Shown here: piece after piece, positions 6,161 through 34,586 of the stretch
Position numbering within the stretch: the first letter of the stretch is position 1
How the letters are laid out: each line of letters begins with the position of its first letter
Origin: Candidatus Krumholzibacteriia bacterium
GTDB taxonomy: Bacteria; Krumholzibacteriota; Krumholzibacteriia; Krumholzibacteriales; Krumholzibacteriaceae
Length of the DNA: 64,000 nucleotides
Direction: 5' to 3'
Assembly: GCA_963770685.1 (NCBI GenBank)
Contig: CAVYQN010000008.1
Coordinates: 22,447 to 86,446, forward strand
Made by a program: the position numbers and the translations under genes
The notes under the pieces: model-generated
Databases searched by the model: none
Told to the model about the DNA's origin: nothing
What the model saw: the letters and a program-made list of their open reading frames with translations, nothing else

Positions 6161-6947
6161 TCACGATTTCTTCTCGGCCAGGATGATCAGCCCACCGACG
6201 AAGGGCTCGAGAATCCTGTTCGAGAGTTTCGCGGGGTCGTTGTACGCCCTCGTGGTTGTCACGACGAGGGGCTTGAGGCCGGGGAACCCGCGGAGTTTTC
6301 GCTTCCACCAGAAAAGGGTTTTCCAGTCCTCGTCCTTCCCGTGCCAGCCGATCCCGAAACTCTCCATGGCGCGGTGCTTCGTGAGAAGCCACTTCAAGCC
6401 TCCCGATTTCCCCCTCGTATCGACGAATCGTTTCACGAACATGCTGTGGAATGTCTTGGGGTTGATCAGGTTGCCGACCAGCACGAGAAGCCTTCCGCCG
6501 GGTTTGAGGATCCGTATCTGTTCCAGCATCGCGGCATCGAAGTCCCAGATATGCTCGAAGGTGTCCTGCGAATAGACGGAGTCGAAAGAAGTGTCCGGGA
6601 AGGGCATCGCGCAGCCGTCGCCCATGACGGCTTTGACGTCGAGGCCGTAGAAACCGGCCATGCCCGCGACGAACTCCGGGTCGCCCGGGCAGATGTCGAG
6701 GTCGTAGCAGTTCGACGCCGAGGGCGGCGAGTTCGTATAGGGAAAAGCCGAGCCCCGCGCCGACGTTCAGCACCTTCTGCCCTTTTTTGACGTCCAGCAG
6801 GCGGCACAGCATTTCGAAATCGCGGTGGTAACGGTGTATGTTCTCCCGGCCGGTTTTTATCTTGAGGTCGAACTCGTTGTGGCGTTCGTTTATCCGGAAC
6901 TCCGGGGTCGGCCGGTTGATCACCAGTTTGTCCTTGTCCACATACAT
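6161..6947 (-). CDS. Class I SAM-dependent methyltransferase (frameshift near 6705)
   Basis: VLNVGAGLG motif I in one frame; GDGCAMPFPDTSFD and RILKPGG in the other. Confidence 0.85.
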
Positions 6948-6958
6948 CGGTGATTACC

Positions 6959-8783
6959 TCAGAACGGCCTTTCCCAGAATCGTTTCCACCCGTTCTCGAC
7001 GAGGCGCAGGGTGATCTCTGCGGTCGTCGCCAGTTTGAGCCAGTGTGGCGTCCGCGCATCGCGGACCTCGTCGACCCATTTCCCGTCGAGGTACTCCCGG
7101 ACGCGCGCATCGGGTCCGAGAAGCTCGGCGAAGGTCGGAGTGAGAACGGTTCTGTACCAGAGATCCCAGTTTTCCATACCGGGCTTCCGCTTCCCGCCGA
7201 TCCTCTCGGCGAGCTTGCGTGGGCCCTTGTGGATCAATTGTATCAAACGATACCGCGTTTTGTCACGGCAGGAAAAAGCGTGAATCGGGATGCCGTACAT
7301 CGGCACTCTGCGAAGGCGCGGGTTCGTCTCGATCAGCGCCGACTGGACGAAATATTCCCTGTAGACGTCGTCGTTGATAAAGACCCAGTTCTTCCCCACG
7401 CCGTATTCGATCTCGCAGGCTAGTTGTATCACGTCGGGGTGGAGGTAAGGGGCGCGTAGTGAAGCGCAGTGATCGGCGATAAGGCACTCCCCGTTGTAGT
7501 ACCGAGGCATCCCCTGGTCGATCTTGTATTCGACGTAGTTACGCACCGAGGAGAATCCGCCGAATCTATTTTCGAACCAGTCGAGCGAGCCGTCGACATG
7601 TTCCCTGAAGGGGCCGAACCGCTCTCCGAATACGCCGCGGAAGAACTCGTCGTTTACCGTTCTTTTTCCGGTGCGGAAGGCCTTCGTGATGTCGTGCGAC
7701 AGACCGTTGGGGATCTGTACGTGCCCGCGGAACATCGCGTCGGCTCCAATCCCGCTTATCACCCAGGGATTCGTCGTGCCGCCAGAGGTGATCGCGTGAT
7801 AGGTGTTGGGAAGATAGGTGCGATTGATCCCCTCGAGACCTCCCGACTGGAACACAGTCTCGCGAGAGAGCATGGGGATCCGTTCGACATAGGCGGAGTC
7901 GAAGGGCAGCTCGCGGTGAGGGAAGCCCATCGCCTTCGCCACTCCCGCCGCCAGGGTAAGGTCGATTCGAGCCGGGAAGGCCGTAGGTGTAGGTCGTGAC
8001 CCTCGCGGCATCCTTTTCCGGCATGAGGCCCGAAAGGGTCCTGCAGTCCCATCCGCCCGACAGGGCGTGGGCGACCGGCCCCGGGTAGCCATAGTACTGC
8101 GGGACGACATTCTGGAAGACCTCCACGGCCTTTTCGATTGCCGCCACCCCGGTCAGGGGGTGTTCGGCGAGCTGGAAACGTCGTCCGTATTTATGCTCTT
8201 TAACGGCGCTCGTGGCCGGATTGATCTCGGTTACCGTGGCCGTTGGAGGCCTCACGACCCCCTTGTACATGCCTGTCGGCCCGAGCGGCGTGCTGTAGTA
8301 AAAATGTTCCCATAGCCAGGCAGGGTTGAATTCCGGCGAAGGCCCCGCCACGGCGAAGGCCCCCTGGTGGCTCGCGACGTCGACCCTGCCGGCGGTGATC
8401 CTGTAGAACACGGGGTAGAAGCAGTACATGTCGGAAACGACCCATGCACGGCCCGTGGCCCGGTCGTGTATGACGAGAGCGAAGAAGCCGGGGAGCTCGG
8501 GGAATTGCCCTGGCTTGCCATCGCGAATGGGGGAGATCATCCGATCCCACGGTACGGCACCCTCGGCCACGACATCGCCACCGAGCACGGCAGTGAATCG
8601 GCCGTCGTCGTATGAGCGCTTGATTACGGAGGGGAGGCCGGGGAAAACAAAGACGGCGAGCAGGCCGAGGTCCGTCCCAATCGTTTCGATCCTGTCGGTC
8701 CCGTAGGGGTCGAGGACGCCCGCGACACGTGTCGCCGTGTCGCTTTCGACGGTTTGTCCGAACGATCCATATATTCCGGACAT
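6959..8783 (-). CDS. Asparagine synthase-like amide ligase (frameshift near 7970)
   Basis: Ntn-like N-terminus MSGIYG, GFFALVIHD, SDMYCFYPVFY; PP-loop ALSGGWDCR; ISGIGAD; RAPYLHPDVI. Confidence 0.82.
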
Positions 8784-8909
8784 CCTGGCCTTCCTTTCCA
8801 GTACGGTTACGTAAACCGGTTTTATACTTGAAGAATATTAAAACTTATATAAGTAAGATTATAGCATAGTCTATATGCGCGTGGCAAGACGTGAATTCTG
8901 CGGACGGGG

Positions 8910-8939: not shown

Positions 8940-8990
8940 TTGAACATTGAACTCTAAACGTGCCGATGGAGAGAAAAAGGTAATTAATCG

Positions 8991-9694
8991 ATGAAGATAC
9001 TTGGTGATCATCCCCGCCTTCAACGAAGAAGGCAGCATCGGGCAGCTTGTCGGGGATATAAGGAAAAATATAGAGGGCTCAGATATCCTCGTCGTCAACG
9101 ATTGTTCGACCGACCGGACCGGGATGTGCTCGAATCGCTTGATGGCGTGAAGTACCTTACACTTCCGTTCAACATGGGGATCGGCGGGGCGGTTCTTGCC
9201 GGCTTCAATTATTTCCTCGAAAATGACTACGATTTCCTCGTCCGTATGGACGGGGACGGGCAGCATCCGCCGGATCAGGCCGGTATTCTGATCGACGCTG
9301 TCGTCAACGGCGGGGCCGACGCGGCGATAGGTTCGCGATATCTGGGCCACGAAAAGGAATATTCGTCGCACATGAGAAGAATGGGGATCAATCTTCTCAA
9401 CTCGCTTTCATCGGCGATTCTCAGGAAAAGGTTTACCGACAATACGTCCGGGTTCAGGGCTTACAACAGGAAAGTCCGTCCGAGCATCTCGCTGCGGATT
9501 ATCCCTTCGATTATCCGGAGCCGGAGGAGATATACATTCTGACCAGGAAAGGGTACGACGTGAGGGAGTATCCGGTCAGGATGAAGGCCCGCGAGACGGG
9601 GACGTCCTCGATAAATACCCTCCACACATACTATTTTCTCGTGAGGGTGCTGCTCACTATCTTCGTCAAATACATGATTGGAGGAAAGAAATGA
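8991..9694 (+). CDS. GT2 glycosyltransferase, DPM1-like (several frameshifts)
   Basis: VIIPAFNEE, VVNDCS, NMGIGGAV, MDGDGQHPP, IGSRY, DNTSGFRAYN, DYPEPE and RETGTSSI spread over frames. Confidence 0.85.
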
Positions 9695-9724
9695 ATCCTC
9701 ATATATCTGCTGAGCAGGATACAG

Positions 9725-10063
9725 ATGTTCAGTATCCTCGGCTCCGTGGTCCTGATCGCCCTCCTGGTATACTTTATCCGCCGGCGAAAGCTGCTCGAGG
9801 AATATTCGATCCTGTGGCTGATCATATTTTCGATATTCCTTGTAGTATCGATCTTCGGGGCGTTTCTCGAGAGTTTCTCGAGGTTTCTCGGGGTGTTGTA
9901 TCCTCCGGCGGCGCTGTTCGTTATAATGTTAATCGGAATATTCCTTCTCATGCTTCATTTTTCCATCATCATCTCCGACCTCAAGCGCAAGATAAACAGG
10001 CTGTCCATCACGAACGCCCTTCTCGAAGAGAGAATCAAATCGCTGGAAAAGCGGGGTTCGTGA
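9725..10063 (+). CDS. DUF2304 family membrane protein
   Basis: IRRRKLLEEYSILW, LGVLYPPAALF and ISDLKRKINRL pattern; typical GT2 partner; start may be at 9691 via a frameshift. Confidence 0.85.
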   Translation: MFSILGSVVLIALLVYFIRRRKLLEEYSILWLIIFSIFLVVSIFGAFLESFSRFLGVLYPPAALFVIMLIGIFLLMLHFSIIISDLKRKINRLSITNALLEERIKSLEKRGS

Positions 10064-10096
10064 GTTTTTGTATTCAAACCCGGGACTGGAACTCGA

Positions 10097-11125
10097 ATGG
10101 CTGATAAAAACGCCGGCGCATGGATTCGCACAAACTGGAAAGCCATCGCCGGCATAGCCGTCAGCGCGGCCTTCCTCTATCTGGCGTTGCACGAGGTGGA
10201 TCCCGCCGTCTCTGGCCGAAGGGTTGAAGGAAGCTGACTACCTTTACATGATCCCCGTATTCCTGGTCATGCTTCTCAGCATGTGGTTCAGGGCGATCAG
10301 GTGGCATTACCTCCTTAAGTCGATAAAGAAGATTGGAGTGGGAAACCTTTTTTCCGCCTCGGCGATCGGGCTTATGGCGAACAATCTTCTGCCGGCGAGG
10401 CTCGGCGAGTTCGTGAGGGCGGTCGTGATAGGACGCAAGGAGACATATAAGCAAAAGCTCATCGTTTGCCACGATCGTCGTGGAGAGGGTTCTGGACGGG
10501 CTGACCGTTCTTACCTTTCTCGGGATCGTTCTGATTTTCGACCTCTTCTCGTTTCCGCCGGTAATGAGGGAAGCCGCATGGATAACCGTGATATTCTATC
10601 TTGCCGTTATAATATTTCTCGTGCTTTTCAAGCTCAGAAGAGAGATGGCACTCGCTATCGTCGCTTTATTTGTGAAGCATCTCCCCGGCGGGATCGCAAG
10701 GAAGATAACACGGGCTTCTCGAAGCATTTATCGACGGGCTTAAGGTTCTTGAAAACGGGTGGGATCTCGCCCGCGCGATGGTTCTTTCATTCCTCGTGTG
10801 GGTTCCCAACATAGTCGTAATATGGCTGCTTTTCCTGTCGTTCGATTTCGTGCTTCCATTTTACGCGCCGGTGATTTTGTTCGTGATCCTCACGATAGGC
10901 ATTATGATCCCGTCCGCGCCGGGATTCGTCGGGACGATCCAATACTGCTGCGTCCTCGGACTCGGCTTGTTCGGAGTCGGACAAAGTGAGGCGCTGAGTT
11001 ATTCGATCGTTTATCATCTTGGAGTATTCATACCGATAACCGGTGCGGGATTGGTGTGTCTTCTGATCGAAGGGCTCTCTTTCTCAGAGATGAGACGCCT
11101 GTTCAGGACTGGAATCGAAAGTTGA
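10097..11125 (+). CDS. Lysylphosphatidylglycerol synthase TM-domain (UPF0104) flippase-like protein, copy 1 (several frameshifts)
   Basis: RAIRWHYLL, GLMANNLLPARLGEFVR, VERVLDGL and IPSAPGFVGT motifs. Confidence 0.85.
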
Positions 11126-11356
11126 AATCGGCCTTTCGCCGGTTTTCCACACTCTCCCGGTTATCGCATCGAACGAATCATTCTGAAGGATGGTGGTTGA
11201 CATGGCAGGGAAACATTTTGTACAATAATAAATTATGCAGTTTCGCGATCCACTCCAACGCTGAGCACGATGGAATAATTGGATGCCAATAATCAGGATC
11301 ACGGTTAATGTTGATCTCTCTGCCGCGCATCGCGAAGAGATCGCTTGATGTAAACT

Positions 11357-12045
11357 ATGAATAATACGCTATACATGGATAAGCCGGGCGCCTGGTCAAG
11401 TCATTCGTGGATTGTCGGCCGACTGTCAAGGCTTGCCGAAGGGCGCAAGGTTCTGGATGTCGGCACGGCTACCGGAACCATAGGAAGAATGTGCAAGGGC
11501 AAGGGTTTGATTTTCGATGGGATCGAACCGAATCCGGCATGGGCCGACGCGGCGCGTCCTTACTATAATAAGTTGGAAGTTAAAACCTTGGAAACCTGTT
11601 CCGAGCAGTTTCTGAGTGGACATCATGCGGTCGTCTGCGCCGATGTTCTGGAACATATGAAGGATCCGGAATCGGTATTGAATAAATTGATTGCACTGCA
11701 GGACGATGCGTGTATTCTTTATCATCTCGGTTCCAAACATCGCCAATATCTGGATTCGATTGAATCTGCTTTTCGGACATTTTGATTATACTGATCGCGG
11801 CATCCTCGATCGCACTCATTTGAGGTTCTTCACGCGCAGAACCGCACGGCGGATGATCGAAAACGCGGGGCTGGCGATTACCGCCAGCGGCACCACACCC
11901 ATCCCTCTCGACATGGTGTCACCGTTTTTCGAAAAATCCCCCGCAGGTCACATGCTGCACCGAATGTTGAAAACTGTTCACCGGCATCTTTCCGACCGTT
12001 TTCGGTTATCAGTTTGTCTTTGAAGCAGTCAGGAGCAGATCATGA
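11357..12045 (+). CDS. Class I SAM-dependent methyltransferase, glycan-associated (frameshifts)
   Basis: VLDVGTATG, CADVLEHMKDP, ISVPNIAN, FDYTDRGILDRTHLRFFT, FGYQFV. Confidence 0.85.
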
Positions 12046-12808
12046 TGGATAAGACCCTCGATCGAGAAGAAAATCGTCATTGTTCTTCCCGCCTATAATG
12101 CCGAGAAAACACTCTTGAAAACGCTGGCTGAAATTCCTCCTGAATTTTCAAAGCATGTTATTCTTGTCGACGACGCATCGAAGGACAACACGGTCGCGGT
12201 AGCCAGGAAGGCCGGCCTCACGGTTTTTGTTCATGAAAAGAACAAGGGGTACGGTGGTAATCAGAAAACATGTTATACGAAGGCCTTGGCCATGGGCGCT
12301 GACCTTGTCGTGATGCTTCACCCGGACCATCAGTACGACGCAACCGTTATCCCACACATGGTCACTCCCATTCTCGAAGGTGAATCCAATGCCGTGTTCG
12401 GATCGCGAATGCTCGGCGGCCGCCCGATAGAAGGCGGGATGCCGTCCTGGAAATATGTCGCCAATGTATTCCTGACTGCGTTCGCCAACATTGTCTTCCG
12501 GCATTACCTGACCGAGATTCATTCCGGATTTCGGGCATACTCGCGAGAAGTATCTGGAAACCGTGAGGTTCATGGAGAATAGCGATGATTTTATTTTCGA
12601 CACGGAGATAATTGCTCAAGGGATGATGTGCAATCTGACGTTTCAAGAAGTTCCCATCGTAACCCGCTATTTTCCCGAGGCTTCATCAATAAATTTGCGT
12701 CGCAGTACCATTTATGGATTCGGCATTCTGGGAGTATTGTTCAAATATATGATCCATCGCCGTGGATTGGCGCATTTCCGGCAATTCACTCCGCAGGAGA
12801 GGAAATAA
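12042..12808 (+). CDS. GT2 glycosyltransferase, DPM1-like (frameshifts)
   Basis: IVLPAYNAEKT, LVDDASKD, NKGYGGNQKTCY, MLHPDHQY, HSGFRAYS, FIFDTEII, TRYFPEASSI. Confidence 0.88.
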
Positions 12809-12853
12809 TCCCGATCGACACCGCGTTTGTCGAGATTGTTAAGGAGGTGCCAA

Positions 12854-14594
12854 GTGAACAACGAACCGGCTGGAAATCGAACCGCTACGTCGGGGTCAGG
12901 TTCACGCCGGGACTCGATGTATATTTTCGTCGTTGTTCTCGCTTCGCTCTTTCCCGTACTCGGATTTGGCGCATATTTCAGAAACGAGGATGCACGTATC
13001 CTTGTCTGGTTGAGAGACAACACGAGGATCCTCGACGCGTTCCATTTAGACGTTCGCTATCATCCCATGGCTTTTCGCCCTGTTAACGAAATAATTTATC
13101 GCATAATCTACAACACCAGGGGGCTAGATCCTCTGGCATTCCAACTCGTAAGCGCGGTGTGTTTCGTCGGGGCGGTTGTTCTAATGTACCTTATCGGGAA
13201 GCGCCTTTTCGAAAGCAGGCGCGCCGCATTTCTTTCTATATTATCCTTTTTTGCGTGTTTTTATTTTACACTCCACTTTCTCTACACGCCTATCCAGGGA
13301 TTGCAATTCCCCGTCGAACTCCTTCTGGTTACGGCTCTGGTGTATCTGCTTCTCGGAACCCTCCCGCAAGGACTGTTCGGGTACCGCGTGCTCGCGGCCG
13401 CCGTTCTTGCGATACTGGCTGTGTTCAATCATCCCGTGAGCGCCTTTCTCCTTCCGGTACTGGCAATCGCCCTTGTTCTTATCGGCTGGCGACATGACGT
13501 TACCGGCGGACACGCCGGGCGGCGATCGCCCTTAAGATCGTCACCATGGTATTCTTCGCCGGCCTCTGGCTTCTGATACCGGTGCTGACCTCGCAGGTGA
13601 CGATGGAACCACGCGGGGTCATCGGGTTGATTCCGGAAATGATCAGGCGGTATTACATCTATGGAGGGATCTTCCTTCGCGGGATCAACAAGATACTTGT
13701 ACCGTTCAGCATCTCTTATCTTATCGCCGGGATTCTTATGGCCAGGTTTACGGCGGGTGTCTCTAGTGTTCGTCGGTTGGGGATCGGCATCCTGGTCGCT
13801 TTTGCATTCGTAATTTTGTTTAATATGCTCCCTTTGATCCCGTGCCTTCACGATTTTAAGCGTATTGCTGGTATTTCTCGTTTTTACCGGCTGGAGGCGC
13901 CTGTTTCTGGTTTTATGGTTCTTCGCCGGCATGTTGCCAATTCTAACGAGTCCCGTGGTAACAGGTGTTTACATGAGGCATTCCATAATTGCACTGAGTC
14001 TTGCTTATGGGATTTGGTTACAGCGAGCTGATCGGCGACATCATTCTGGTTTTCGGACATCGGGCGAGGCGTCTCTGCGCCGTGTTTACTCTTGAGCGAT
14101 TGGCCGGGGCAATAACGACTCTTGCCGTGCTCGCCTTGCTGATCGCGGGATTGCACATAGCGCCGGTGCCGGTTATTTCCAGGCAGCTCGGGCAAATCGA
14201 GTATCTGAAAAACCTCGGAAACAACTTCCGCGATACCATCGCGTTTCTATCGACTGAACTGGACAAGGAAGCGACGGTATACTTCTACCGCGGCCCCACG
14301 AGAGACGAGGAAGACCAATATGCTTATAGCAGCACTCACCTGGAACGCTTACAGCCGGCCAAGAGTATCTACTATCCATTTTATTTCGCGATGATGGGTC
14401 GGGAGGATATAACAGTACGATTCACGGACGAGCTTCAACCCGATCTCGCCGGCGCCGTGATAGTGGCAACCAACAACTGGGAGGTGCGGGAAATAGAATC
14501 GACCTTTCATCTCGAGACCTGGCGGGAGTTCCATCGAGGAAAGGCTTCGGCAAAGATCTACCGGGTACGGTCCAACATTCCGCTTTCCCGGTAA
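12854..14594 (+). CDS. Polytopic membrane protein, putative GT-C glycosyltransferase (frameshifts)
   Basis: AAGGAGG RBS with GTG; N-terminal TM, then an ED pair and FRPV motif; many TMs; soluble C-terminal domain; split across consecutive ORFs. Confidence 0.62.
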
Positions 14595-14636: not shown

Positions 14637-15629
14637 ATGAACTTGAAGACCCTTGCAGGTCTCGTTGTAAGCGCGATATTCCTCTATTTCGCTTTTCGGG
14701 AAGTCGATTCCGATGTGCTATTTCAGGCGTTGCGGGAAGCTGATTATCGTTATCTGATCCCGGTGGTTATTATCATAATCCTGAGCATGTGGTTCAGGGC
14801 CGTGCGATGGCATTATTTATTGAAGTCGGTCAAAAAGATAGGGCTGTGGAATCTGTTTTCCGCTTTGTCCATCGGCCTTATGGCCAACAATCTTCTTCCT
14901 GCGAGACTGGGTGAATTTGTCAGAGCCGTTGTCATAGGCCGGAAGGAAAACATCAGCAAAAGCTCATCATTTGCAACAATCGTCGTGGAAAGGGTTTTCG
15001 ATGGCTTGACCGTCCTGACCTTCCTTGGAATAATACTGATCCTGGACCTGTTCTCATTTCCACAAGTTCTAAGAGAGGCGGCGTGGCTGACGGTTATATT
15101 CTACTTTGTGGCGATAGTTTTCCTCGTTCTCATAAAATTTCGGAGGGAGACTGCGTTCGGCGTTGTTTCTTTCGCAGTCAGGCCGCTGCCCGGAGCGATT
15201 GGAAGGAAGATAATGGGTCTGCTGGATTCATTTGTCGGCGGATTAATGATTCTTAACAACGGCTGGGATCTTTTTCGCGTCATGATACTTTCATTTCTGG
15301 TTTGGATTTCCAACATTGTCGTAATATGGTTGCTGTTTATATCATTTGATTTTTCACTTCCTTTCTACGCCGCGGTGGTTCTGTTCGTTATTATAGCCAT
15401 AGGCGTAATGATACCGTCAGCTCCAGGTTTTGTCGGAACCATTCAGTACTGTTGTGTGCTGGGGCTCGGGTTTTTCGGGGTGAGTCAGAGCCAGGCTCTC
15501 AGCTACTCGATCATTTATCACATGGGAGTATTTATTCCGATAACGGGCCTGGGGCTGCTGTGTATTCTCCTGGAAGGGCTGTCATTTTCTGATGTCCGGC
15601 GTCTCTTCAGGACCGGAAATGACGGCTAG
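14637..15629 (+). CDS. Lysylphosphatidylglycerol synthase TM-domain (UPF0104) flippase-like protein, copy 2 (intact)
   Basis: Same motifs as copy 1; intact 330-aa ORF. Confidence 0.9.
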   Translation: MNLKTLAGLVVSAIFLYFAFREVDSDVLFQALREADYRYLIPVVIIIILSMWFRAVRWHYLLKSVKKIGLWNLFSALSIGLMANNLLPARLGEFVRAVVIGRKENISKSSSFATIVVERVFDGLTVLTFLGIILILDLFSFPQVLREAAWLTVIFYFVAIVFLVLIKFRRETAFGVVSFAVRPLPGAIGRKIMGLLDSFVGGLMILNNGWDLFRVMILSFLVWISNIVVIWLLFISFDFSLPFYAAVVLFVIIAIGVMIPSAPGFVGTIQYCCVLGLGFFGVSQSQALSYSIIYHMGVFIPITGLGLLCILLEGLSFSDVRRLFRTGNDG

Positions 15630-17078
15630 GGAAGCGGTCTCGGAATTTTTCCTTATGATGTTGCTTGTCGCTATTATCAGCCCGAATAAAAGCCAGATAA
15701 AAAAGATGTATTTATCATTTCTGACGTATTCGATTTTTATCTGGTCGATGCAGAACATCACGAAACAGACGTGAAGCACCTTCATGAAAGCCTCGGAGAA
15801 GGGAGAATTCACCAGGGAGCTTCGTATCCCCGGCAGCGAGGCCCTGCCGAGCCTGTAGAGAATAAATAGAAAGGCCGACAAGCCAAAAATACCGGTTATG
15901 TTGAAATAGAAGAGATAGGCATTGTGTGGCCAATAACCGGTGTTGAGCCCGCCGGAAAAATCCCACCCTGGCCCGTTGCCGATAAAAGGATGCTTCATTC
16001 CCCTTTCAATGGCGCCCTCCCATGGAATGAGTCTGTTGGCCGGGATGATCCCCTTTTCGAAAGTCGAAGCGAACAGCCTGTCGAAAAGCGAACCTGATGT
16101 CGTATAATTCGACACGAAGGTCTCCAATACTACAATCATGAGGGCGAAAGCTCCAATGATGGAAACCAGTCTGATAAAATTGAGATCCTTCCTTGAAAGG
16201 AACATCATATAACCCACGCCGATGAACAGGGAAATGAAGGCTCCCCTCGTGATTGTGGCGAACATCATCATAAGATCCGTGATCAGTAGCGCCATAAGAA
16301 GGAATTTTGTGACAAGTCTTTTCGACCGCAAATAAAGAAAAAAGAATACGAGCACGTTCATCGCGAAAAATTCGGCGACAAGTTCGAAATCGTGAAAAGG
16401 TCCGCCCATTCTTAAATCTTTCATGATGAGTTCCGTCTTATGCGCGGTATAAAGCCAGTTGGGGATTATGACTCTTCCGGGGAAAAGCATCTCTAAGATT
16501 GTAAATGCTATTACAAGCGTGGCCGATATCGCCAGCATCCTGACGGTTTTTTCGAGTTTTTGTTCATCGTCGACAAGGTTGATGATCATGTACATGAAAA
16601 GAATGGCTGAAAAGAAATTGCCCGTGTGGACGATGGCCTGTTGAAATAGAACCGTGGAAAAATCCATGTTATAGAACGAGACAATATATGCGACTACGAG
16701 AAGGAGAGCCGGCATTGTTATCTGCCTGTCGAATCTTAGTGTCGCCGCGCCAGTCGATACTCGAATAAGATATATTATAAAGATAACCAATACAAAGATG
16801 AAGTTGGAGTTGCCGATAGAAATGCCGAAGGGGAAAGGGTGTATGATGATAAGAAACCAGACGGCTCCAAGCGTCGAATAACTCCAGAGTATCGCCGCCA
16901 CGACGAAACCTGCAACCGCCTCGATCACCCGCTTGCTGGGATTGTATATTTGGGTCGCAACGAGCCAACCGACGCCGGCTACAAGGATAGACATCCTGAT
17001 CCAGGCGAACGAAACCCGGGACGTCCTGGGTCGGCCGGCACCGGTTTCGTCAAGAGATGTTTCTGATATCTTCCTCAT
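15582..17078 (-). CDS. O-antigen ligase/polymerase (Wzy_C) family protein
   Basis: Many TMs; TITRGAFI, R-x3-W, HPFIGNGPG and PHNAYL motifs. Confidence 0.88.
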   Translation of the reverse strand: MRKISETSLDETGAGRPRTSRVSFAWIRMSILVAGVGWLVATQIYNPSKRVIEAVAGFVVAAILWSYSTLGAVWFLIIIHPFPFGISIGNSNFIFVLVIFIIYLIRVSTGAATLRFDRQITMPALLLVVAYIVSFYNMDFSTVLFQQAIVHTGNFFSAILFMYMIINLVDDEQKLEKTVRMLAISATLVIAFTILEMLFPGRVIIPNWLYTAHKTELIMKDLRMGGPFHDFELVAEFFAMNVLVFFFLYLRSKRLVTKFLLMALLITDLMMMFATITRGAFISLFIGVGYMMFLSRKDLNFIRLVSIIGAFALMIVVLETFVSNYTTSGSLFDRLFASTFEKGIIPANRLIPWEGAIERGMKHPFIGNGPGWDFSGGLNTGYWPHNAYLFYFNITGIFGLSAFLFILYRLGRASLPGIRSSLVNSPFSEAFMKVLHVCFVMFCIDQIKIEYVRNDKYIFFIWLLFGLIIATSNIIRKNSETASLAVISGPEETPDIRK

Positions 17079-26250: not shown

Positions 26251-26397
26251 TTCATGTGGCCGCTTTCCGTTTCGATTCCCGCCGTTACGTTTCACGCCCG
26301 GTGGCCCGGTTCTTATCGACATTCGACGGCCCAGTATACAGACTGCGTTCCGATATGACAATAAAGAACTGGCTCGGCGGCGCGAGTCTTCCGCTGA

Positions 26398-26426
26398 TTG
26401 ACAAATATTCGAAAATGCAATACAGT
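26398..26426 (+). promoter_or_regulatory. Putative sigma70 promoter of the NRPS
   Basis: TTGACA, 17-nt spacer, TACAGT; AGGAGG RBS precedes the ATG at 26548. Confidence 0.6.
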
Positions 26427-26547
26427 GCGACGGCGTGCGGGGCGTCCGCGGGTCAGCCCGACGGAAAGCGCGAGGATTTGCCACGAAAAAGGAAAGCGCG
26501 CGCCGCCGGCGTTTCGCCGATGGGAATTCAGGAGGTTATCGGCCCGA

Positions 26548-29500
26548 ATGAGTAATGTCATCGATTCCTATCCGCTGTCTCCCCTGCAGGAAGGGATGCT
26601 GTTCAACGCGCTATTCGCGCCCCACTCGGGCGTCGACATCACGCAGATCATCTGCCGGATGCACCACTCCCTGGATGTCGCGGCCTTTGAACGCGCCTGG
26701 CGGGGGGTCGTCGAGCGCCACGCAATCCTCAGGACCGGTTTCAGATGGGAGGGCCTCGAGGAACCGCTTCAGGAGGTGCACGCGGCCGCCGACCTCGAAT
26801 TCGTCGCCGTCGATCTTGGCGGCCTCGGGCCGGCGGAGCAGAATGAGCGTCTCGAGGCGCACCTCGCGGCGGACCGTAAGCGCGGATTCGACATCTCCTC
26901 CCCCCGCTGATACGGGTCGCCGTCTTCCGGCTTTCCGCCGGAGAGAACATTCTGGTATGGCCGCTCCATCACCTCCTTCTCGACGCCTATTCCTGCGCCA
27001 TGATCCTCAAAGAGGCGTTCACGATATACGAAGCTGAGCTGGAGGGAAGGAGCATCGATCTCGGGCCATCGCCGCCTTTCAGAAAATATATCGAGTGGCT
27101 GCAGGGGCAGGACGCGGCGGCTGCCGAGCATTTCTGGCGCGATCTCCTCAAGGGTTACACGGCTCCGATATCGCTTTCGATCGCGCACGATCCGCGGCGG
27201 CTTTCGAAGATCGGCCGTATCTACGGGAAAAGGGAAATATTGCTTCCGCCGCGCGTCAGGGAGGTGCTCAAGCCGTTCGCCAGGCAGAACGGATTCACGC
27301 TCTACACCTGTTTCCAGGCGGCGTGGTCGATCATACTCTCGCGTTACAGCGGTTCGAAGGATGTTCTCTTCGCTTCGGTGAGGGGTTGCCGCGGGGTTCC
27401 GATCGAGAACGCCTCCTCGATTATCGGGATGTTCATAAACACGCTCCCCGTACGGGCGAAGATCGACGAAACGATGCCTCTGGCGGACCTGCTCAAGGGC
27501 CTGCGCGCGCAGCATATAGAGACGCGGGCCTTCGAGCACAGCCCGCTCGCGAAGATTCAGCGATGGAGCGAAGTGCCGCCGGGGATGCCGCTGTTCGAAA
27601 GCCTCATGAACTACGAGAGCCGGCCGTGGGACTCGCTGCTCGCCTCGTTCGGGGGAAATTTCCCGAAGCGCGAATGGGACGTCCGGCATCAGACGAATAT
27701 TCCGATCGGGCTCGACGTCTATGAGGAGCCCGAGACCCGCATCGTCGTCGATTACGACCTCGGCATGTTCGACGCGGGGGCGATGGAGGCGATGCTGGGC
27801 CATTACGGCAGGCTGCTCGGCGCGATGGCGGAGAATCCGGACCGAGCGGTGGGCGACCTTCCGATGCTAACCGAAAGCGAACTGAAAACGATACTGATCG
27901 ACTGGAACAGGACCGGCGCGGAATATCCGCGCGAGGCGACGATACACGGCCTCTTCGAGGTGAAGGTGAAAGAGTCGCCGGAAGCAGTTGCTGTCGTGGC
28001 CGACGGCGGTTCGATTACGTACCGGGAACTGAACGGCAGGGCCAACAGGCTGGCCCATCTGCTGCGGAAACTGGGCGTCGGCCCGGACACGCCCGTGGCC
28101 GTATGCCTCGGACGCGGTATCGATCTTGTCACGGCTCTTCTCGGAGCGCTCAAGTCGGGGGGCACTTATGTCCCCATGGACCCTTCGTATCCGCCGGAAC
28201 GCCTCGCCTTCATGCTGGAGGACACGAACGCTCCCGTGCTTGTCACCGACGAGGCGTTGTCGAAGACGCTTGCCGGGCACAAGGCCCGGGCGATACTGAT
28301 GGACGCGGGATGGGACGAGGTCGCGGCCGAGCCGGACGGTGATCCCGCCGGGGGGGCGGGGCCGGAAAACCTTTGCTACGTCATATACACCTCTGGATCG
28401 ACCGGGCTTCCGAAGGGAGTATGCGTAAGGCACGAGAGCGTTGTGAACCTCTTCGCCGATTTCGACAGGCGAAAGCCGATAGAACCGGGCGCCCGGTGCA
28501 GCCTCTGGACGAGCGTCAGCTTCGACGTCTCGGTCTACGAGATCTTCACGGCCCTTCTTGCCGGGGGGACGTTGCACATCGCCTCCGACGCGATCCGTTT
28601 CGACAGCGCCCTGTTCATCGAATGGCTCGCAGCCAACGGCATATCGAGCGCCTATGTCCCGCCGCTGATGGTGAAGGATCTTCATTCGTGGGCGAAACAG
28701 AATCCGGGCAGGCTCGAACTCGGGCGTCTTCTCGTCGGAGTGGAGCCGATAAACGAAAAACTTCTCGCCGAAATAATGGGAATGGTGCCTGGCCTCGCGA
28801 TCATCAACGGATACGGGCCGACCGAGGCGACGATCTGCGCGACGCTCTACGACGTGAGGCCTGACACGGCGGGCGAGAGAAACACCCCGATAGGGAAACC
28901 GGTTCAGAATTCCCGGGTCCTTCTGCTCGATCCCATGATGCGTCCGGTCCCGGTGGGCATAGCGGGCGAGGTTCTTATCGGAGGGAAGGGGCTCGCGCGC
29001 GATTATCTGAACCGTCCCGAGCTTACGGCGGAGAAATTCGTCCCCGATCCCTTCGGCGACCGGCCGGGCGGGAGGCTCTACAAAACGGGCGATACGGCGA
29101 AATTCCTCTCAGACGGCAACATCGAGTTCATAGGCCGCCGCGACAATCAGGTCAAGATGCGCGGTTTCCGCGTCGAGCTCGGCGAGATCGAGTTCGCCCT
29201 GAGGCGCCACGAATCGGTGAGGGACGCGGTCGTCGTGGCGAAGGAGGACAGGGCGGGGATAAACAGGCTCGTTGCCTACATTGTCCCTGCCGCGGCTGGA
29301 TCGGATGCGGGACAAAACGCGCCGGACGGACGGACGGCTGTCAGCGCGGCCGAGCTCAGGAATTTCCTCAGGGAGAAGCTCCCCGATTACATGGTGCCGA
29401 CCGCTTACGTAACGATGGATTCGTTACCCCTGACCCCGAACGGCAAGCTCGACAAGGCGGCCCTGCCCGAGCCGGAGATAACGAGAGCAGACATCAGCAG

Positions 29501-30566
29501 TTCATATGTTGCCCCGAGAACCGAAATCGAGATGCAGCTATCCCAGATATGGGAAAAGGTGATCGGCATCAATCCCATCGGTGTAAATGACAACTTTTTC
29601 GACCTCGGGGGGCATTCGCTTCTCGCTGTGAGGCTCTTCACCGAGATAGCGCGGGTCTTCGGGACGAACATCCCGCTCGCCGCGATATTCCAGTCCCCGA
29701 CGATCGGGCAGATCGCCGTGATGATCGGGGGAAGCGGTGCGGCGAGGCCGGGAGGATCGCTCGTAACGATTCAACCGACTGGAACGAAACCTCCACTATT
29801 TTTCGTTCACGCGTACGGAGGCGGAGTCTTCTTCTACCGCGAGCTTTCAGACCATCTCGGGACCGACCAGCCCTTCTACGGCCTTCAAGCCGTCGGCATC
29901 GACGGCAAGGAGCGCCCTCAGGGAAGTGTGGAGGAGATGGCGGCCCACTATATAGACGCGATAAAGACCGTGCAGCCGAAGGGCCCGTATTACGTTGGCG
30001 GGAGATGCCTCGGAGCGTACGTCGCCTTCGAGATGGCGAGCCAGCTTTTCAGGCAGGGGGAAAGGATCGCCCTTCTCGCCATCCTCGACAGCTACTGGGC
30101 GCCCCCCGAGGCGGCCGCGAAAAGGCCGGGGGTCGCCGGGCACATGAAGAAACTGGCCACTGGCGGATTCAACGAGCGGGTGAAGTATCTCTCCGAGCAC
30201 GCGGGGAACAGGATGATGAAGACGAAGCTGCGTCTCGCACGTGTCGCCAGCGACATCTCCTTCAGAATGGGACGCCCCGTCCCGCTGTTCATGAAGGATT
30301 TCTATATCAACTATCTCATACCGCACGCCAACATGAAGGCTGAACGGCGTTACGCGCCTCCTGTTTATCCGGGGCTGATAACATTTTTCCAGGCCACAGC
30401 GGAGATCGAGCGCGACCCGAGGTTGTTCTGGGGCAGGCTCACCTCGGAAGGGGTGGAGGTTCACATGGTTCCGGCCACTCACAAGGACATCCTCGTGGAG
30501 CCCAATGTTCACGTTCTCGCGGAAAAGATGGAAAAGGTGCTCGAGAAAGCGCGAAGCGAGGCTTGA
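26548..30566 (+). CDS. Single-module NRPS, C-A-T-TE (frameshift in a C6 run at 26900-26905)
   Basis: C: YPLSPLQEGMLF, HHLLLD, GMFINTLP. A: YTSGSTGLPKG, SFDVS, NGYGPTE, LYKTGD, QVKMRGFRVELGEIE, NGKLD. T: FFDLGGHSLL. TE: LFFVH, PKGPY..GGRCLG, PATH. Confidence 0.95.
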
Positions 30567-30771
30567 AGCCCGGCGGTCCCGGGCAAACGACTACCAACCC
30601 GATCCACCTCCGTTTCTCTCCGTGCCCTTTCCCGCGGCGGCATGAAAGGCGCGTTCCCCCGCCCCCTCCCCAGTAATCGATTGACACCAAGTCCTTTTCC
30701 TGTGCTACTATCGCACCGGAAAACCGCGCCGTTTGTCTATTAACTCTCCACGCCCAGGGCAAGGAGGAAAA

Positions 30772-32748
30772 ATGGAACAGAAAAAAGGCTCCGGCGGGCT
30801 GCCGGCCAACGCGTACAAGGTCCTTCAGCCCGGCGAGCAGTACGTCCCGTACGTGCCGGCGGGCACGATCATACCCGAGATCACGGTCCGTTCGGTCGCG
30901 ATGGGGCTCCTCATGGCCTTCATATTCACCGCGGCGGCGGCCTACCTCGGCCTCAAGATAGGCCAGGTCTTCGAGGCGGCGATCCCCATCGCGATCCTAG
31001 CGGTAGGGCTTGGCGGCATCTTCAAGAGGCGAAGCACGATCCTCGAAAACGTCATCATACAATCGATCGGGTCCACTTCGGGCGCGGTTGTCGCGGGGAT
31101 GATCTTCACCCTCCCGGCGATCATCATCCTCGGGCTCGAACTCAAATTCTACCAGACCTTCATATCGGCCCTTCTCGGCGGTTTTCTCGGGATTCTATTC
31201 CTCGTTCCGCTGAGAAGATATTTCGTCAAGGAGCAGCACGGGCATCTTCCCTTCCCCGAGGGGACGGCGATCAACGAGGTGCTCGTCACAGGCGAGAAGG
31301 GGGGCGACCAGGCGAAGGTCCTGATCGTCGCCGCCCTGATCGGAGGGATATACGATTTCTGCATAGCGACCTTCGGGTTCTGGAGCGAGGTCATCTCGAC
31401 GCGCCTCCTGCCGCCCCTCGCGATGGTGGCGGACAAGGCCAAGCTCGTCGTAAAGGTGAACGCAGGCGCGGCCGTGATGGGGCTCGGATACATCATCGGG
31501 ATGAAATATTCCACCATCATAACCTGCGGGAGCCTCCTTTCCTGGCTCGTTTTCATACCGGCTGTCTGGCTTCTCTCGCCGCACCTCGGATCGTTCCTCG
31601 GGTCGGCGGCCGGGCCTGTATCGCAGATGTCGCCCGAGGAGATATTCACAAATTACGTGCGGCACATAGGGATCGGCGGGATAGCGGTCGCGGGGATCAT
31701 CGGGGTTATCAAGTCTTCGAAGATCATTGTCTCCTCCTTCAGCGTCGGGATCAGGGAAATGTTCGCCGGCAAGGGGGCCGGCGCCGCGAAGACCGAGAGG
31801 ACCGACACCGACCTCAACATGTCGATAGTGATCGGCGCCCTGATCATCACCCTTCTCGTCGTTCTTCTCTTCTTCGGCTTTGCCGTGGTCGATTCGTGGG
31901 GGATCGCCGTGATAGCGCTCATCGTGGTGAGCGTGATCAGTTTCCTCTTCACGACGGTGGCCGCGAGGGCGATTGCGATAGTGGGGATGAACCCGGTCTC
32001 CGGGATGACACTGATGACTTTGATTCTCTCGAGCCTGATTCTCGTCAAGGCGGGCCTCTCGGGCCCGGCGGGGATGGTCTCGGCTCTTATCATAGGCGGG
32101 GTCGTCTGCACGGCTCTTTCGACGGCGGGGTCGTTCATCACCGACCTCAAGGTGGGTTACTGGCTCGGCTCGTCGCCGAACAAACAGGAGGGGTACAAGT
32201 TCCTCGGGATCATCGTCGCCGCGGCGAGCGTGACCGGGGTGATCATGCTTCTCGACAGGGTCTACGGCTTCACCGGGAACACGCCGATGGCCGCGCCGCA
32301 GGCGAACGCCATGGCGGCCGTGATACAGGCTCTCATGTCCGACGCCCAGACTCCATGGGGGCTTTACATAACGGGCGGGGTGATAGCGGTCATACTCGAG
32401 CTTCTGAAGATTTCGCCCCTTTCCTTCGCGCTCGGGATGTACCTTCCGATACAGCTCGTCACGCCGCTTTTCGTCGGCGGGCTCGTGGCGCATTTCGTCG
32501 GGCGCAGCAGCAAAAATGAGGAGATCTCCTCGAAGAGGAAGGACAGGGGCACCCTGATCGCCTCCGGGTTCATCGCCGGCGGCGCGCTGATGGGAGTCGT
32601 AAGCGCCTTAGTCGCCTTCTTCGGATGGAACGAGTTCCTGCACACAGGGTTCGGCGAGACCACGATGGGCGGGGCCCTCAGCGTGATTCTCTTCACGGGG
32701 CTCTGCCTCTACATGTATTTCGACTCGAAGAAGGGGGCGGCGGAATAG
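30772..32748 (+). CDS. OPT family oligopeptide transporter
   Basis: YLGLKIG, AAIPIAIL, ILENVIIQSIGS, LPFPEGTA, NPVSGMT, DLKVGYWLG, APQANAM, ASGFIAG. Confidence 0.95.
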   Translation: MEQKKGSGGLPANAYKVLQPGEQYVPYVPAGTIIPEITVRSVAMGLLMAFIFTAAAAYLGLKIGQVFEAAIPIAILAVGLGGIFKRRSTILENVIIQSIGSTSGAVVAGMIFTLPAIIILGLELKFYQTFISALLGGFLGILFLVPLRRYFVKEQHGHLPFPEGTAINEVLVTGEKGGDQAKVLIVAALIGGIYDFCIATFGFWSEVISTRLLPPLAMVADKAKLVVKVNAGAAVMGLGYIIGMKYSTIITCGSLLSWLVFIPAVWLLSPHLGSFLGSAAGPVSQMSPEEIFTNYVRHIGIGGIAVAGIIGVIKSSKIIVSSFSVGIREMFAGKGAGAAKTERTDTDLNMSIVIGALIITLLVVLLFFGFAVVDSWGIAVIALIVVSVISFLFTTVAARAIAIVGMNPVSGMTLMTLILSSLILVKAGLSGPAGMVSALIIGGVVCTALSTAGSFITDLKVGYWLGSSPNKQEGYKFLGIIVAAASVTGVIMLLDRVYGFTGNTPMAAPQANAMAAVIQALMSDAQTPWGLYITGGVIAVILELLKISPLSFALGMYLPIQLVTPLFVGGLVAHFVGRSSKNEEISSKRKDRGTLIASGFIAGGALMGVVSALVAFFGWNEFLHTGFGETTMGGALSVILFTGLCLYMYFDSKKGAAE

Positions 32749-32791
32749 CCCCGTTCGCGGCGCGGGCCGCGGCGGGCGCTGAAACGCGAAA

Positions 32792-33784
32792 TTGATGGAA
32801 GAAACAAGGGCGCTCCGCGACGATGACCTCGACGAGACGGGGGAATTCATCTTCTCCGTCTCGTGGTCAACCGTACTAGCCGCCGCCGCGGGGCTCAAGC
32901 CGACGACGAGGACGGGGATCTATTTCGCGGCGTCGCGCATCCTCTCCCTGCTTCGAAGCGGGGAGATGGGCGGGATAGCGCACACCTCCGGCGGGGCGAT
33001 CGACGGGCTCATCCTCTGGCAGGAGCTTCCCTGGGATACCGAAGTGACCAAAGCCCGGTGCGCCAGGATAGTGATGGCCGCCGGGCGGGGCCTTCCCGCG
33101 ATGTTAGAGATGTGGAACGCCGAGGCGGCGCGGCGCGGGGTGGAATACACGACGATGAGAATCCCCGAGGGCCATTCGGCGGCGCTCGAAAAAGGGGATC
33201 TTCTCGCCTCGGCGGGTTTCGGGAAGCTCGAGAGGATCATTTACCTTTCGGCCTTCACCGGGATCGATCCGAAGGCGCAGATCAGGCAGGACGCGCCGGT
33301 GAAGCTCAGGAAGGCCGTGAAGGAGGACATAGAGGAAATAGGCGCGATGGCGGCCCGGTCCTACAGTTACGACAGGTTTCACAAGGACTCCTTTTTCAGC
33401 CGCGAGGCCGCCGACGCGGTCCACGTGAAATGGATCAGGGACAGTTTCGCCGGGAGGGCAGACGCGATACTCGTCGCGACCGGCGAAGAGGGGGCGATAG
33501 AAGGGTACTGCACCTGCATGCTTCCCAAGGGGCCCGAATCGTTCTCGGGATGGATCGACATGCTTGCCGTGGATTCGGGCCGGAGGCACCTCGGGATCGG
33601 GGAGGCGCTGATGCGGGGGGCGCTGGCGTACATCCACGACGCCGGGGTGCTGTCTGCGGCCCTCTGCACGCAGGACGACAACAAGCCGGGCCTCAGCCTC
33701 TACCAGAAGACGGGATTCGACCAGTACCTTACGGCGATAACCTGGCGGAAGGAACACCATCCCGATGGCCCGATTTTCCGCTGA
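32792..33784 (+). CDS. GNAT acetyltransferase, WecD/dTDP-fucosamine acetyltransferase-like
   Basis: LPWDT, DRFHKD...HVKWI, IDMLAVD...RHLGIG, TQDDN....LYQKTGF. Confidence 0.82.
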   Translation: MMEETRALRDDDLDETGEFIFSVSWSTVLAAAAGLKPTTRTGIYFAASRILSLLRSGEMGGIAHTSGGAIDGLILWQELPWDTEVTKARCARIVMAAGRGLPAMLEMWNAEAARRGVEYTTMRIPEGHSAALEKGDLLASAGFGKLERIIYLSAFTGIDPKAQIRQDAPVKLRKAVKEDIEEIGAMAARSYSYDRFHKDSFFSREAADAVHVKWIRDSFAGRADAILVATGEEGAIEGYCTCMLPKGPESFSGWIDMLAVDSGRRHLGIGEALMRGALAYIHDAGVLSAALCTQDDNKPGLSLYQKTGFDQYLTAITWRKEHHPDGPIFR

Positions 33785-34586
33785 ATTGATATACAGGATC
33801 GACAGGATCTTCCGGCGGCCCCGCGTCGAGGGGCGAGAGTCCGCGCTCGCCTATTCGGAGTGGGAGTACCGGACCGGCATGGCCCTCGTCGAAAAATATT
33901 CGAAATATTTCGGGCGGATCGAAGGCGCGAGGCTTCTCGACATAGGGTGCGGCCTCGGCGGAAAGACCGTCGTTTACGGCGAAAAGGGCGCCCTGGTGAC
34001 GGGGGTCGACATCGATCCGCAAAATTGCGGGGGCGCCGTCTCGTTCGCCGGCGCGAGGGGGCGCCGGATCGACGTCGTGTGCGGCGACGCGCGGGCCCTT
34101 CCCTTCCGCGACGGCTCGTTCGATTTCGTCGTCGCGAACGATTCCATGGAGCATTTTTCGGATCCCTCAAAGGCGCTCGGGGAGATCGCGCGCGTCACGA
34201 GGAAGGGCGGTTCCATCTTCGTCTTCTTCACTCCCTGGGGCTCCCCGCTCGGTTCGCACCTCTACGACCACATCAGGACCCCGTGGTGCCACCGCGTCTA
34301 CGGCGAGGGGCTGCTTCAGGAGCTGCTCGAGATCTCGCTGAGGGAAAAGGGGGCGGCGGACCCGGCGGCGGGGGCGGCGGAGATGATGAAGGGGTACAGG
34401 GAGGAGAACAACAGGATCGACGTCGCGGGGTACAGGCGGATTCTTAAAGGGATCAGCGGCATCGAGGTGGAATACAAGGAGCTGATCCCGCCGAAGTACC
34501 GTTTCCTCGCTCCCCTCGCGGGGATCCCGCGCCTCGGGGAATATTTCACCGGAACGGTCGTCTCAATTCTGCGTAAAACAGTTTAG
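33765..34586 (+). CDS. Class I SAM-dependent methyltransferase
   Basis: LLDIGCGLGG, GVDID, GDARALPF...FD, DSMEH, PWGSPLGSHL. Confidence 0.9.
   Translation: MARFSAELIYRIDRIFRRPRVEGRESALAYSEWEYRTGMALVEKYSKYFGRIEGARLLDIGCGLGGKTVVYGEKGALVTGVDIDPQNCGGAVSFAGARGRRIDVVCGDARALPFRDGSFDFVVANDSMEHFSDPSKALGEIARVTRKGGSIFVFFTPWGSPLGSHLYDHIRTPWCHRVYGEGLLQELLEISLREKGAADPAAGAAEMMKGYREENNRIDVAGYRRILKGISGIEVEYKELIPPKYRFLAPLAGIPRLGEYFTGTVVSILRKTV

Follow-up and report, generated by a model that had tools for sequence, protein, structure and literature searches.

A complete nonribosomal peptide synthetase (NRPS) module standing alone among envelope-glycan genes raises the question of whether its product ends up on a surface sugar or leaves the enzyme as a small molecule. 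Such a module, accompanied by an Sfp-type phosphopantetheinyl transferase (PPTase), is encoded in a 64,000-nucleotide stretch of a Candidatus Krumholzibacteriia genome (the window, meaning the whole stretch analyzed; G000:C8:22447-86446; source genome, 1.54 Mb, 8 contigs, 71% complete, 2% contaminated). An initial annotation of this DNA had proposed that the module decorates a glycan or glycolipid. Here, we report that the NRPS and the PPTase have the appearance of an accessory two-gene cassette, and we propose, with a probability of roughly 0.55, that they form a sporadic accessory module in a conserved envelope neighborhood of one bacterial family, releasing an N-acyl-amino-acid-type product.

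NRPS and PPTase genes

The two genes and the domains of the NRPS, namely, condensation (C), adenylation (A), carrier (T), and thioesterase (TE), are as follows.

26548-30566, + strand: stand-alone NRPS, C-A-T-TE, ~1339 codons (Pfam; frame broken once)
26548-27893, + strand: C domain, HHLLLDAYS motif, assigned to the DCL/starter clade
27954-29447, + strand: A domain, AMP-binding plus AMP-binding_C (Pfam)
29538-29717, + strand: T domain, GGHS serine (Pfam and alignment)
29793-30518, + strand: TE domain with Cys (GGRCLGA), Asp (LDSYW), and His (ATHKD) (Pfam and alignment)
21420-22202, + strand: Sfp-type PPTase (ACPS plus AASDHPPT_N)

In three-frame translation, the NRPS span (4019 nt) reads as two frames rather than as one open reading frame (ORF). 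An AGGAGG ribosome-binding site lies 5′ of the ATG at 26548; codons 1 to 120 (MSNVIDSYPLSPLQEGMLF...) share one frame, which meets a stop just past a C6 run, and the remaining 1228 codons lie in a second frame, from 26880. The homopolymer (26900-26905) is one base short, the shift falls between ...FDISSP and PLIRVAVF..., and the Condensation profile is split across the two frames (positions 3-114 in the first, 117-455 in the second). From 27000 to 30566, the frame holds Pfam Condensation, AMP-binding, AMP-binding_C, PP-binding, and Thioesterase domains. The C-A-T-TE enzyme described in the initial annotation at these coordinates therefore stands in its domain content, which is that of a termination module, and falls as a single ORF, given the base missing in the C run of the assembly.

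Orthologs span the break point in one frame, FDIS(V/S/K)(P/A)PLIRVAV. Four public sequencing runs were checked; contigs from the three that cover the site (the closest ~98% identical) all carry one extra base at the C run, and the fourth had no contig there. The frame is likewise unbroken across the site in the contigs of four relatives and along full-length orthologs. The single NRPS frameshift is most likely a consensus error of the assembly.

The C-domain motif HHLLLDAYS keeps both His residues and the Asp of HHxxxDG and replaces Gly with Ala, as do 16 close orthologs and the more distant L045; Gly is retained in L043 and L044. Bit scores against solved structures are 300 for McyB, 245 for BacC, 216 for the first C domain of PvdL, 205 for the starter C domain of SrfA-A, 204 for SrfA-C, and 194 for TycB; LCL types lie far below (TycC, 96; LgrA, 70; AB3403, 55). 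By these scores, the domain belongs to the DCL/starter group, clearly outside the LCL group.

The A domain (AMP-binding E value, 1.2e-77, plus AMP-binding_C) conserves FDVS and PNGKLD and appears to keep the Asp and Lys required for an alpha-amino-acid substrate. Its putative pocket string, DVYYLGGICK (positions taken from GrsA numbering), is shared by 13 of 17 close sequences and differs in P0009, P0012, P0014, and P0017 and in three distant homologs. The string could not be assigned to a substrate, and comparison with solved A domains gave no match that discriminates between substrates.

The T domain (PP-binding E value, 3e-15) carries GGHS in 20 of 20 homologs. The TE (Thioesterase E value, 1.8e-24) has a Cys-Asp-His triad (GRCLGAY, LDSYW, and His) that is invariant in the same number, with the Asp located after strand beta6. 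In the three distant homologs, identity is 47-55% for the TE, 46-52% for the T domain, 39-45% for the A domain, and 31-33% for the C domain. This rank is unusual for a TE, a domain type that commonly shows some of the lowest conservation. Across the homologs (P0002-P0017 and L043-L045), A pockets vary between subgroups, in contrast to the invariant and best-conserved TE.

The PPTase, a 260-amino-acid ORF, scores 56.2 bits against ACPS (cut-off, 25) and 31.6 bits against AASDHPPT_N (cut-off, 27), in agreement with its first assignment as Sfp-type; its bounds are 21420-22202, in place of an earlier start at 21462. It starts 15 nt past the MurB stop, and its own stop abuts that of the Wzx gene. 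It is the sole non-AcpS PPTase of the source genome, which has a separate short AcpS-type gene on contig C2. None of five NRPS-less relatives has a second PPTase, each having only the short AcpS-type. The Sfp-type gene thus occurs together with the NRPS, and by this co-occurrence it would be dedicated to it.

Distribution

A protein search returned a tight set of NRPSs of 1326-1332 amino acids, 61-71% identical and all C-A-T-TE; beyond it, identity falls to 45% or less, in multi-module NRPSs. All named records that match closely are metagenome-assembled genomes (MAGs) of Candidatus Krumholzibacteriia or Krumholzibacteriota. Within the phylum, 201 genomes were searched. Orthologs (58-73%) or distant single-module homologs (41-47%) were present in 13 of the 41 other genomes of family f1, and none of the matches in other families was a single-module homolog (they were multi-module or A-only, at 38% or less). 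Neither an ortholog nor a distant homolog of this kind occurs in the other two genomes (90% complete) of the genus to which the window belongs.

A partner NRPS was found in none of the NRPS-bearing relatives G036 (96% complete), G038 (96%), G096 (98%), and G069 (95%), whose other matches were only acyl-CoA-ligase-like (28-37% identity). The source genome, at 71% completeness, gave no second C domain, no MbtH, and no MBOAT (DltB-type) gene. The NRPS appears to stand alone, since near-complete relatives hold no other and the source genome holds neither a second C domain nor MbtH; this extends to the whole assembly what had first been noted for the window.

A metagenome scan with the T-TE region added 80 more distant relatives, 79 of them 30-43% identical, which were mostly the last module of multi-module synthetases. 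Homologs of Wzx, GT-C, MurB, or OPT lay near none of the 80 (tblastn, up to 10 kb of flank), and an Sfp-type PPTase lay within the fetched flanks of 18. The TE nucleophile was Cys in 27, Ser in 51, and Thr in 2. At many of these metagenome loci (L091-L170), an Sfp-type PPTase gene sits directly 3′ of the TE-encoding NRPS end.

Gene neighborhood

Among the other genomes with the NRPS, the genes most often run MurB > NRPS > PPTase > < Wzx < GT-C, Wzx being a flippase and GT-C a glycosyltransferase. MurB is directly 5′ of the NRPS in 9 genomes (the upstream flank of G074 is only ~0.7 kb). Co-location outside the window, a check proposed with the initial annotation, is borne out: the PPTase is directly 3′ of the NRPS in 10 of 11 genomes with 3′ flank (exception, G074), and Wzx comes next in 10 of 11 (exception, G069, with unrelated ORFs there). 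Because all orthologs belong to one bacterial family, this is close to a single evolutionary observation. The order in the window, MurB > PPTase > < Wzx < GT-C, NRPS > OPT, is unique; the NRPS and the PPTase are indeed separated by the Wzx-type and GT-C genes, both on the minus strand.

The same neighborhood exists without the module. GT-C orthologs occur in 41 of 42 other family genomes, with or without the NRPS. All 12 loci fetched from NRPS-less genomes have MurB and GT-C and lack both the NRPS and the PPTase; Wzx was detected in 6 of them and OPT in 7. Where the flank reaches, their backbone order is M24-(684 aa)-MurB-Wzx-GT-C-OPT-(GNAT)-MT, with MT a methyltransferase. Wzx, GT-C, OPT, GNAT, and MT are therefore independent of the NRPS, being present in the same order where it is absent. 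The dependence is thus not mutual: the NRPS is almost always next to Wzx, but the glycan genes occur without the NRPS.

Against G080, a member of the same genus, the window aligns in three blocks at 77-91% nucleotide identity (blastn), interrupted exactly where the window has the PPTase (21357-22216) and the NRPS (26372-30653). The segments concerned are as follows.

21358-22215, + strand: PPTase-bearing segment, ~0.86 kb, replaced by ~0.1 kb in G080 (blastn breakpoints)
26373-30652, + strand: NRPS-bearing segment, ~4.28 kb, absent from G080 (blastn breakpoints and junction alignment)

The NRPS segment carries its own promoter-like site (26398-26426, promoter scan) and falls between two other such sites, those of GT-C and OPT, which stand back to back. 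Because the backbone is kept in order without the module and the window and G080 differ by two clean insertions, the NRPS and the PPTase are best described, on these alignments, as an accessory two-gene cassette.

In a tree of the T-TE region, the window NRPS nests in a g5/g10 group (support, 100/99), and the homolog of G038 (g6) pairs with that of G074, far from it. In a tree of OPT, the window falls together with G080 and G107 (100/100 and 100/99); G038 joins this group next (97/93), and g5 lies on the other side. The incongruence of the T-TE tree with the OPT backbone tree, both of them small, single-gene trees, suggests that the NRPS was transferred between lineages of the family. The PPTase was uninformative as a marker of the donor lineage, with only 30-46% identity even between subgroups of one genus.

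Flanking genes

The remaining genes were mapped by Pfam and NCBIfam scans of long ORFs; those of the conserved backbone are marked.

6959-8783, − strand: AsnB-like amidotransferase gene (weak match; split into two overlapping frames)
8988-14591, + strand: pieces of GT2, UPF0104, methyltransferase, GT2, and PMT_2-like genes (low-GC, frame-switching ORF chain)
14637-15629, + strand: UPF0104/LPG_synthase_TM gene, intact; backbone (Pfam/NCBIfam)
15582-17129, − strand: Wzy_C-like gene; backbone (Pfam/NCBIfam)
17075-18304, − strand: M24 peptidase; backbone (Pfam/NCBIfam)
18301-20355, − strand: 684-amino-acid membrane protein, DUF2298-like; backbone (near DUF2298 clusters in a protein atlas, a lead only)
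20502-21404, + strand: MurB; backbone (sole MurB_C match in the source genome)
22203-23639, − strand: Wzx-type MOP flippase; backbone (Polysacc_synt/Polysacc_synt_3; +2 and +1 indels, internal stop)
23653-26484, − strand: GT-C-fold glycosyltransferase by model, 943 amino acids, with a C-terminal beta-sandwich; backbone (Dpy19 and model)
30733-32748, + strand: OPT-family transporter; backbone (E value, 2.9e-100; own promoter-like site)
32792-33784, + strand: GNAT; backbone (sub-threshold WecD likeness)
33765-34586, + strand: S-adenosylmethionine methyltransferase; backbone (Pfam/NCBIfam)
34682-35923, + strand: DNRLRE-domain protein (Pfam/NCBIfam)
35924-37138, + strand: BamG-like barrel, then TPR proteins (Pfam/NCBIfam)

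Of the glycan genes that the initial annotation had placed on the left, a UPF0104 and a Wzy_C gene are present, the GT2 genes and a second UPF0104 gene lie in pieces, and the AsnB-like gene is weak and split. On the right, the GNAT (its WecD similarity below threshold) and the methyltransferase were both found. The statement that the window holds no efflux or resistance gene does not survive, as the OPT-family transporter at 30733-32748 lies 167 nt 3′ of the NRPS. OPT was considered as an exporter for the module and rejected: in NRPS-less G080 it is 97% identical, in the same place, with its own promoter-like site kept, and in G180, G158, and G150 it is not beside the NRPS.

The 943-amino-acid neighbor scores 29.3 bits against Dpy19 (Pfam cut-off, 27.2). 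Its AlphaFold model (15 orthologs; predicted local distance difference test [pLDDT], 71.7; predicted template modeling score [pTM], 0.71) has as its top Foldseek matches in the PDB only GT-C proteins, namely, DPY19, AglB, STT3, PglB, AftA, AftD, and ArnT (E values down to 4.7e-8, probability 1.0, modest TM-scores of 0.3-0.5). At the level of this model, the GT-C fold is confirmed. Because orthologs align from about residue 77, translation probably begins downstream of 26484. Residues ~770-943 form a beta-sandwich similar to the carbohydrate-binding domain of the O-antigen ABC transporter Wzt (Foldseek TM-score on the target, 0.55; probability, 1.0).

Three further ideas about the backbone were dropped. 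Wzx is not the lipid II flippase MurJ, whose profile matches elsewhere in the genome and not at the Wzx gene. Adjacency to MurB in 9 relatives did not mark the NRPS as a replacement for a Mur ligase: the contig itself has a dcw-type cluster with four Mur ligases, and contig C1 adds a fifth match, which is FolC-like. The window MurB is the housekeeping copy, as the sole MurB_C match of the source genome. Recombinational replacement of the Wzx-GT-C block (77.5% identical to G080, with flanks at 85-91%) was set aside, as the same genes are the most divergent against G107 too; the divergence calls for nothing more than membrane proteins evolving faster.

Several flanking genes are broken in the window. 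Relative to G080, Wzx has +2 and +1 indels ~170 nt apart that leave ~57 codons out of frame, with an internal stop; it is an intact 475-amino-acid ORF in G080, G107, and G038. The AsnB-like gene, split here, is in a single frame in NRPS-less G092 (L070 12181-13977), where the intact ortholog lies between GT-C and OPT, the slot of the window NRPS. Positions 8988-14591 have a GC content of 49-51%, against ~60% elsewhere, and the frame switches there at least 8 times, never at a homopolymer of 5 or more; this is either a glycan island that was acquired horizontally and has since decayed or a strain-variable part of the assembly that is poorly resolved. A long-contig relative, L003, has similar scattered frame breaks. 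Apart from the NRPS break, no frame break in the window falls at a homopolymer of at least 5, which rules out homopolymer error as the cause of all of them.

Two observations concern the DNA farther 3′. The DNRLRE protein and the BamG-like beta-barrel (34682-37138, + strand) follow the methyltransferase, an order kept in relatives with and without the NRPS. A 795-amino-acid ORF (40028-42415, + strand) joins a class-V aminotransferase domain (IscS/NifS-like) to full MnmA-type tRNA methyltransferase domains and could have arisen by natural fusion or by read-through in the assembly.

Proposed function and alternatives

Read from domain content, the steps would be these. The PPTase would convert the T domain to its holo form, the A domain would load one alpha-amino acid, and the N-terminal C domain, of the DCL/starter clade, would acylate the amino group. 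The donor would come from outside the module, as acyl-CoA, as an acyl group on an acyl carrier protein, or from a free carrier and adenylating-enzyme pair on contig C1; an acyl donor is the most economical assumption, as no partner or preceding module was found. The Cys-Asp-His TE would then release an N-acyl-amino-acid-type product by hydrolysis or by transfer to some nucleophile. The most likely product, as predicted from the domains, is an N-acylated amino acid; this chemistry, already suggested in the initial annotation, is plausible in that the C domain scores with DCL/starter types and no partner NRPS was found.

On C1 (~482951-484792; L083 7952-9793), the free carrier lies directly 5′ of a 521-amino-acid AMP-binding enzyme, which has 28-29% matches in most family genomes. 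The pair adjoins a metallo-beta-lactamase-fold gene and an NAD synthase gene.

Several points weigh against release of an N-acyl amino acid by an accessory module. The best match of the C domain, McyB, is a DCL-type elongation domain and not a starter; as elongation domains (McyB and BacC) outscore starter C domains, starter function here is something that we infer. The C1 pair is not tied to the NRPS, because it is a core pair of the family, NRPS-less genomes included. The source genome is only 71% complete, and the assembly-error explanation of the NRPS frameshift is uncertain because the other breaks in the window are not at homopolymers. Finally, the module lies beside Wzx although the window NRPS groups with another genus and occupies a different intergenic site, and this adjacency may have been retained by selection favoring a place beside the glycan genes.

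That last point leads to the use first proposed for the module, in which the TE, acting as an acyltransferase, would load an (acyl)aminoacyl unit onto a polyprenol-linked sugar at the cytoplasmic face, Wzx would flip the decorated unit, and GT-C and Wzy_C would assemble it, giving a strain-variable glycan or glycolipid decoration. Wzx is adjacent in 10 of the 11 other NRPS-bearing genomes and GT-C in most, but all of these cases come from one family and are not independent, the backbone keeps its order at NRPS-less loci, and G069 has the NRPS-PPTase pair without a following Wzx or GT-C. In both gene orders, that of the relatives and that of the window, the module abuts the Wzx/GT-C pair; MurB and Wzx, however, converge on a slot in which an insertion disrupts nothing, and none of the 80 distant T-TE relatives has Wzx, GT-C, MurB, or OPT in its flanks. 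A TE that is the best-conserved domain in distant homologs (47-55%, against 31-33% for C), next to variable A pockets, would suit such a transfer, as would a module without a tailoring or export gene of its own, and a passage of PMC10510592 on AstC supplies a precedent for transfer of an aminoacyl group by a TE to the hydroxyl of a separate molecule. Yet the TE has no specific likeness to sugar-acylating TEs (the Pks13 TE, at 49 bits, is one among many generic TEs), and no MBOAT (DltB-type) gene was found in the 71%-complete source genome. The NRPS has apparently moved between lineages (g5/g10 for the NRPS, against g1 and then g6 for OPT) and yet is in the same locus. Because the moved NRPS is still in this neighborhood, at a different intergenic site, we consider the proposal unlikely and rate it no lower; a link between the NRPS-PPTase pair and surface-sugar decoration is, from the gene arrangement, possible. 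A more specific form, in which the pair is a mobile decoration cassette for the Wzx/GT-C/Wzy_C envelope glycan and its variable A pockets yield strain-specific surface chemistry, is rather improbable.

It is also doubtful that the locus is nonfunctional in this genome and that the frameshift in the NRPS, the indels and stop in Wzx, the split in the AsnB-like gene, and the fragmentation of 8.9-14.6 kb are all real mutations. Many frame breaks do crowd into one region, those outside the NRPS all away from homopolymers of 5 or more, and the NRPS and the PPTase are missing, through loss or original absence, from G080 and G107 of the same genus, so loss of the module is tolerated. The break in the NRPS itself, on the other hand, is a single base in a C run, with the extra base in 3 of 3 runs of related strains covering the site and one frame across it in the contigs of four relatives; nothing else interrupts the 3.7-kb NRPS frame, and the PPTase and the 2.8-kb GT-C gene are likewise open; G080, G107, and G038 each have an intact Wzx; and the similar scattered breaks of L003 point to assembly noise.

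That the NRPS is the termination module of a multi-protein system with partners in the unassembled 29%, as SrfA-C is with SrfA-A and SrfA-B, would fit the incomplete genome (71%) and a C domain resembling DCL domains that take a D-configured peptidyl donor (McyB, BacC, SrfA-C, and TycB), but it is highly improbable, given that near-complete G036, G038, G096, and G069 show only the NRPS ortholog and acyl-CoA-ligase-like matches (28-37%) and that the source genome has no other C domain.

Significance

Candidatus Krumholzibacteriia are uncultured. A text search of titles and abstracts found no papers on Krumholzibacteriota NRPS chemistry and none on a system combining an NRPS, Wzx, exopolysaccharide, and a PPTase. 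Under the N-acyl-amino-acid proposal, a minimal NRPS and PPTase cassette with no other dedicated gene would be easy to express and could reveal a small acylated amino acid. If the module did decorate an envelope glycan, it would be the first full NRPS module to do so, a use of a C-A-T-TE module not described for any envelope polymer. The main value of the analysis is corrective: gene neighborhood alone over-suggested a functional link, and NRPS-less relatives reveal that the glycan backbone is independent.

Comparison with known systems

DltA/DltC and AlmE/AlmF aminoacylate an envelope polymer by means of an adenylating enzyme, a carrier, and a membrane acyltransferase, with no C or TE domain. 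DltA is among the matches of the A domain (E value, about 1e-62). Unlike these systems, the window NRPS fuses all of its domains, C and TE included, and the 71%-complete genome gave no MBOAT; by these features, it is not of the Dlt/Alm type.

SrfA-C (2VSQ) and EntF (5JA1) have the same C-A-T-TE order, with whole-length matches at E values of 2.9e-186 and 8.2e-122 (query, ortholog P0002). Partner synthetases or an aryl carrier, encoded in a dedicated cluster, supply their donors, and the TE nucleophile of both is Ser. The window NRPS differs in that no partner or MbtH-like protein was found in its 71%-complete genome, nor a partner in near-complete relatives. The lipoinitiation C domains, SrfA-A C1 (PDB 8F7F) and the first C domain of PvdL, are N-terminal with no upstream module, as here; the window C domain matches them at 205-216 bits, far above LCL types, and matches McyB (300) and BacC (245) higher still.

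AstC, an A-PCP-TE protein (PCP, peptidyl carrier protein) of ansatrienin biosynthesis, is presented in a passage of PMC10510592 as one whose TE, rather than hydrolyzing the aminoacyl group held on the carrier, passes it to a hydroxyl on a different molecule. AstC lacks a C domain and uses a polyketide macrolactam as acceptor; it is likened to the window NRPS by description only.

According to PMC11298585, SulM, ObiF1, and AB3403 are the only solved NRPS TEs with Cys. The window TE shares this residue with ObiF1 (obafluorin) and SulM, and ObiF1 is also a single C-A-T-TE module, making an N-acyl amino acid derivative. The triad Asp of ObiF1 and SulM occupies an alternative position that the same paper ties to beta-lactone/beta-lactam formation, unlike the window Asp, which follows beta6. 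ObiF1 matches the NRPS only from the A domain onward, and Cys is not uncommon in the TE subfamily, with 27 of 80 environmental relatives carrying it.

As a stand-alone termination-type NRPS, here with a dedicated Sfp-type PPTase, the window module is closest in form to AB3403 of Acinetobacter baumannii (ABBFA_003403; PDB 4ZXH/4ZXI), likewise a stand-alone C-A-T-TE protein (~1320 amino acids), with an undefined product. Its C domain is only distantly similar (55 bits). In a passage of PMC10510592, the donors of AB3403 and EntF come from free carrier and adenylating-enzyme pairs, and the AB3403 cluster has its own free-standing adenylation enzyme and carrier; the window module, in contrast, consists of only the NRPS and the PPTase. 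The TEs of the two proteins align over their full length (E value, 4e-20), Cys on Cys, and the AB3403 Asp, according to PMC11298585, follows beta6, as in the window.

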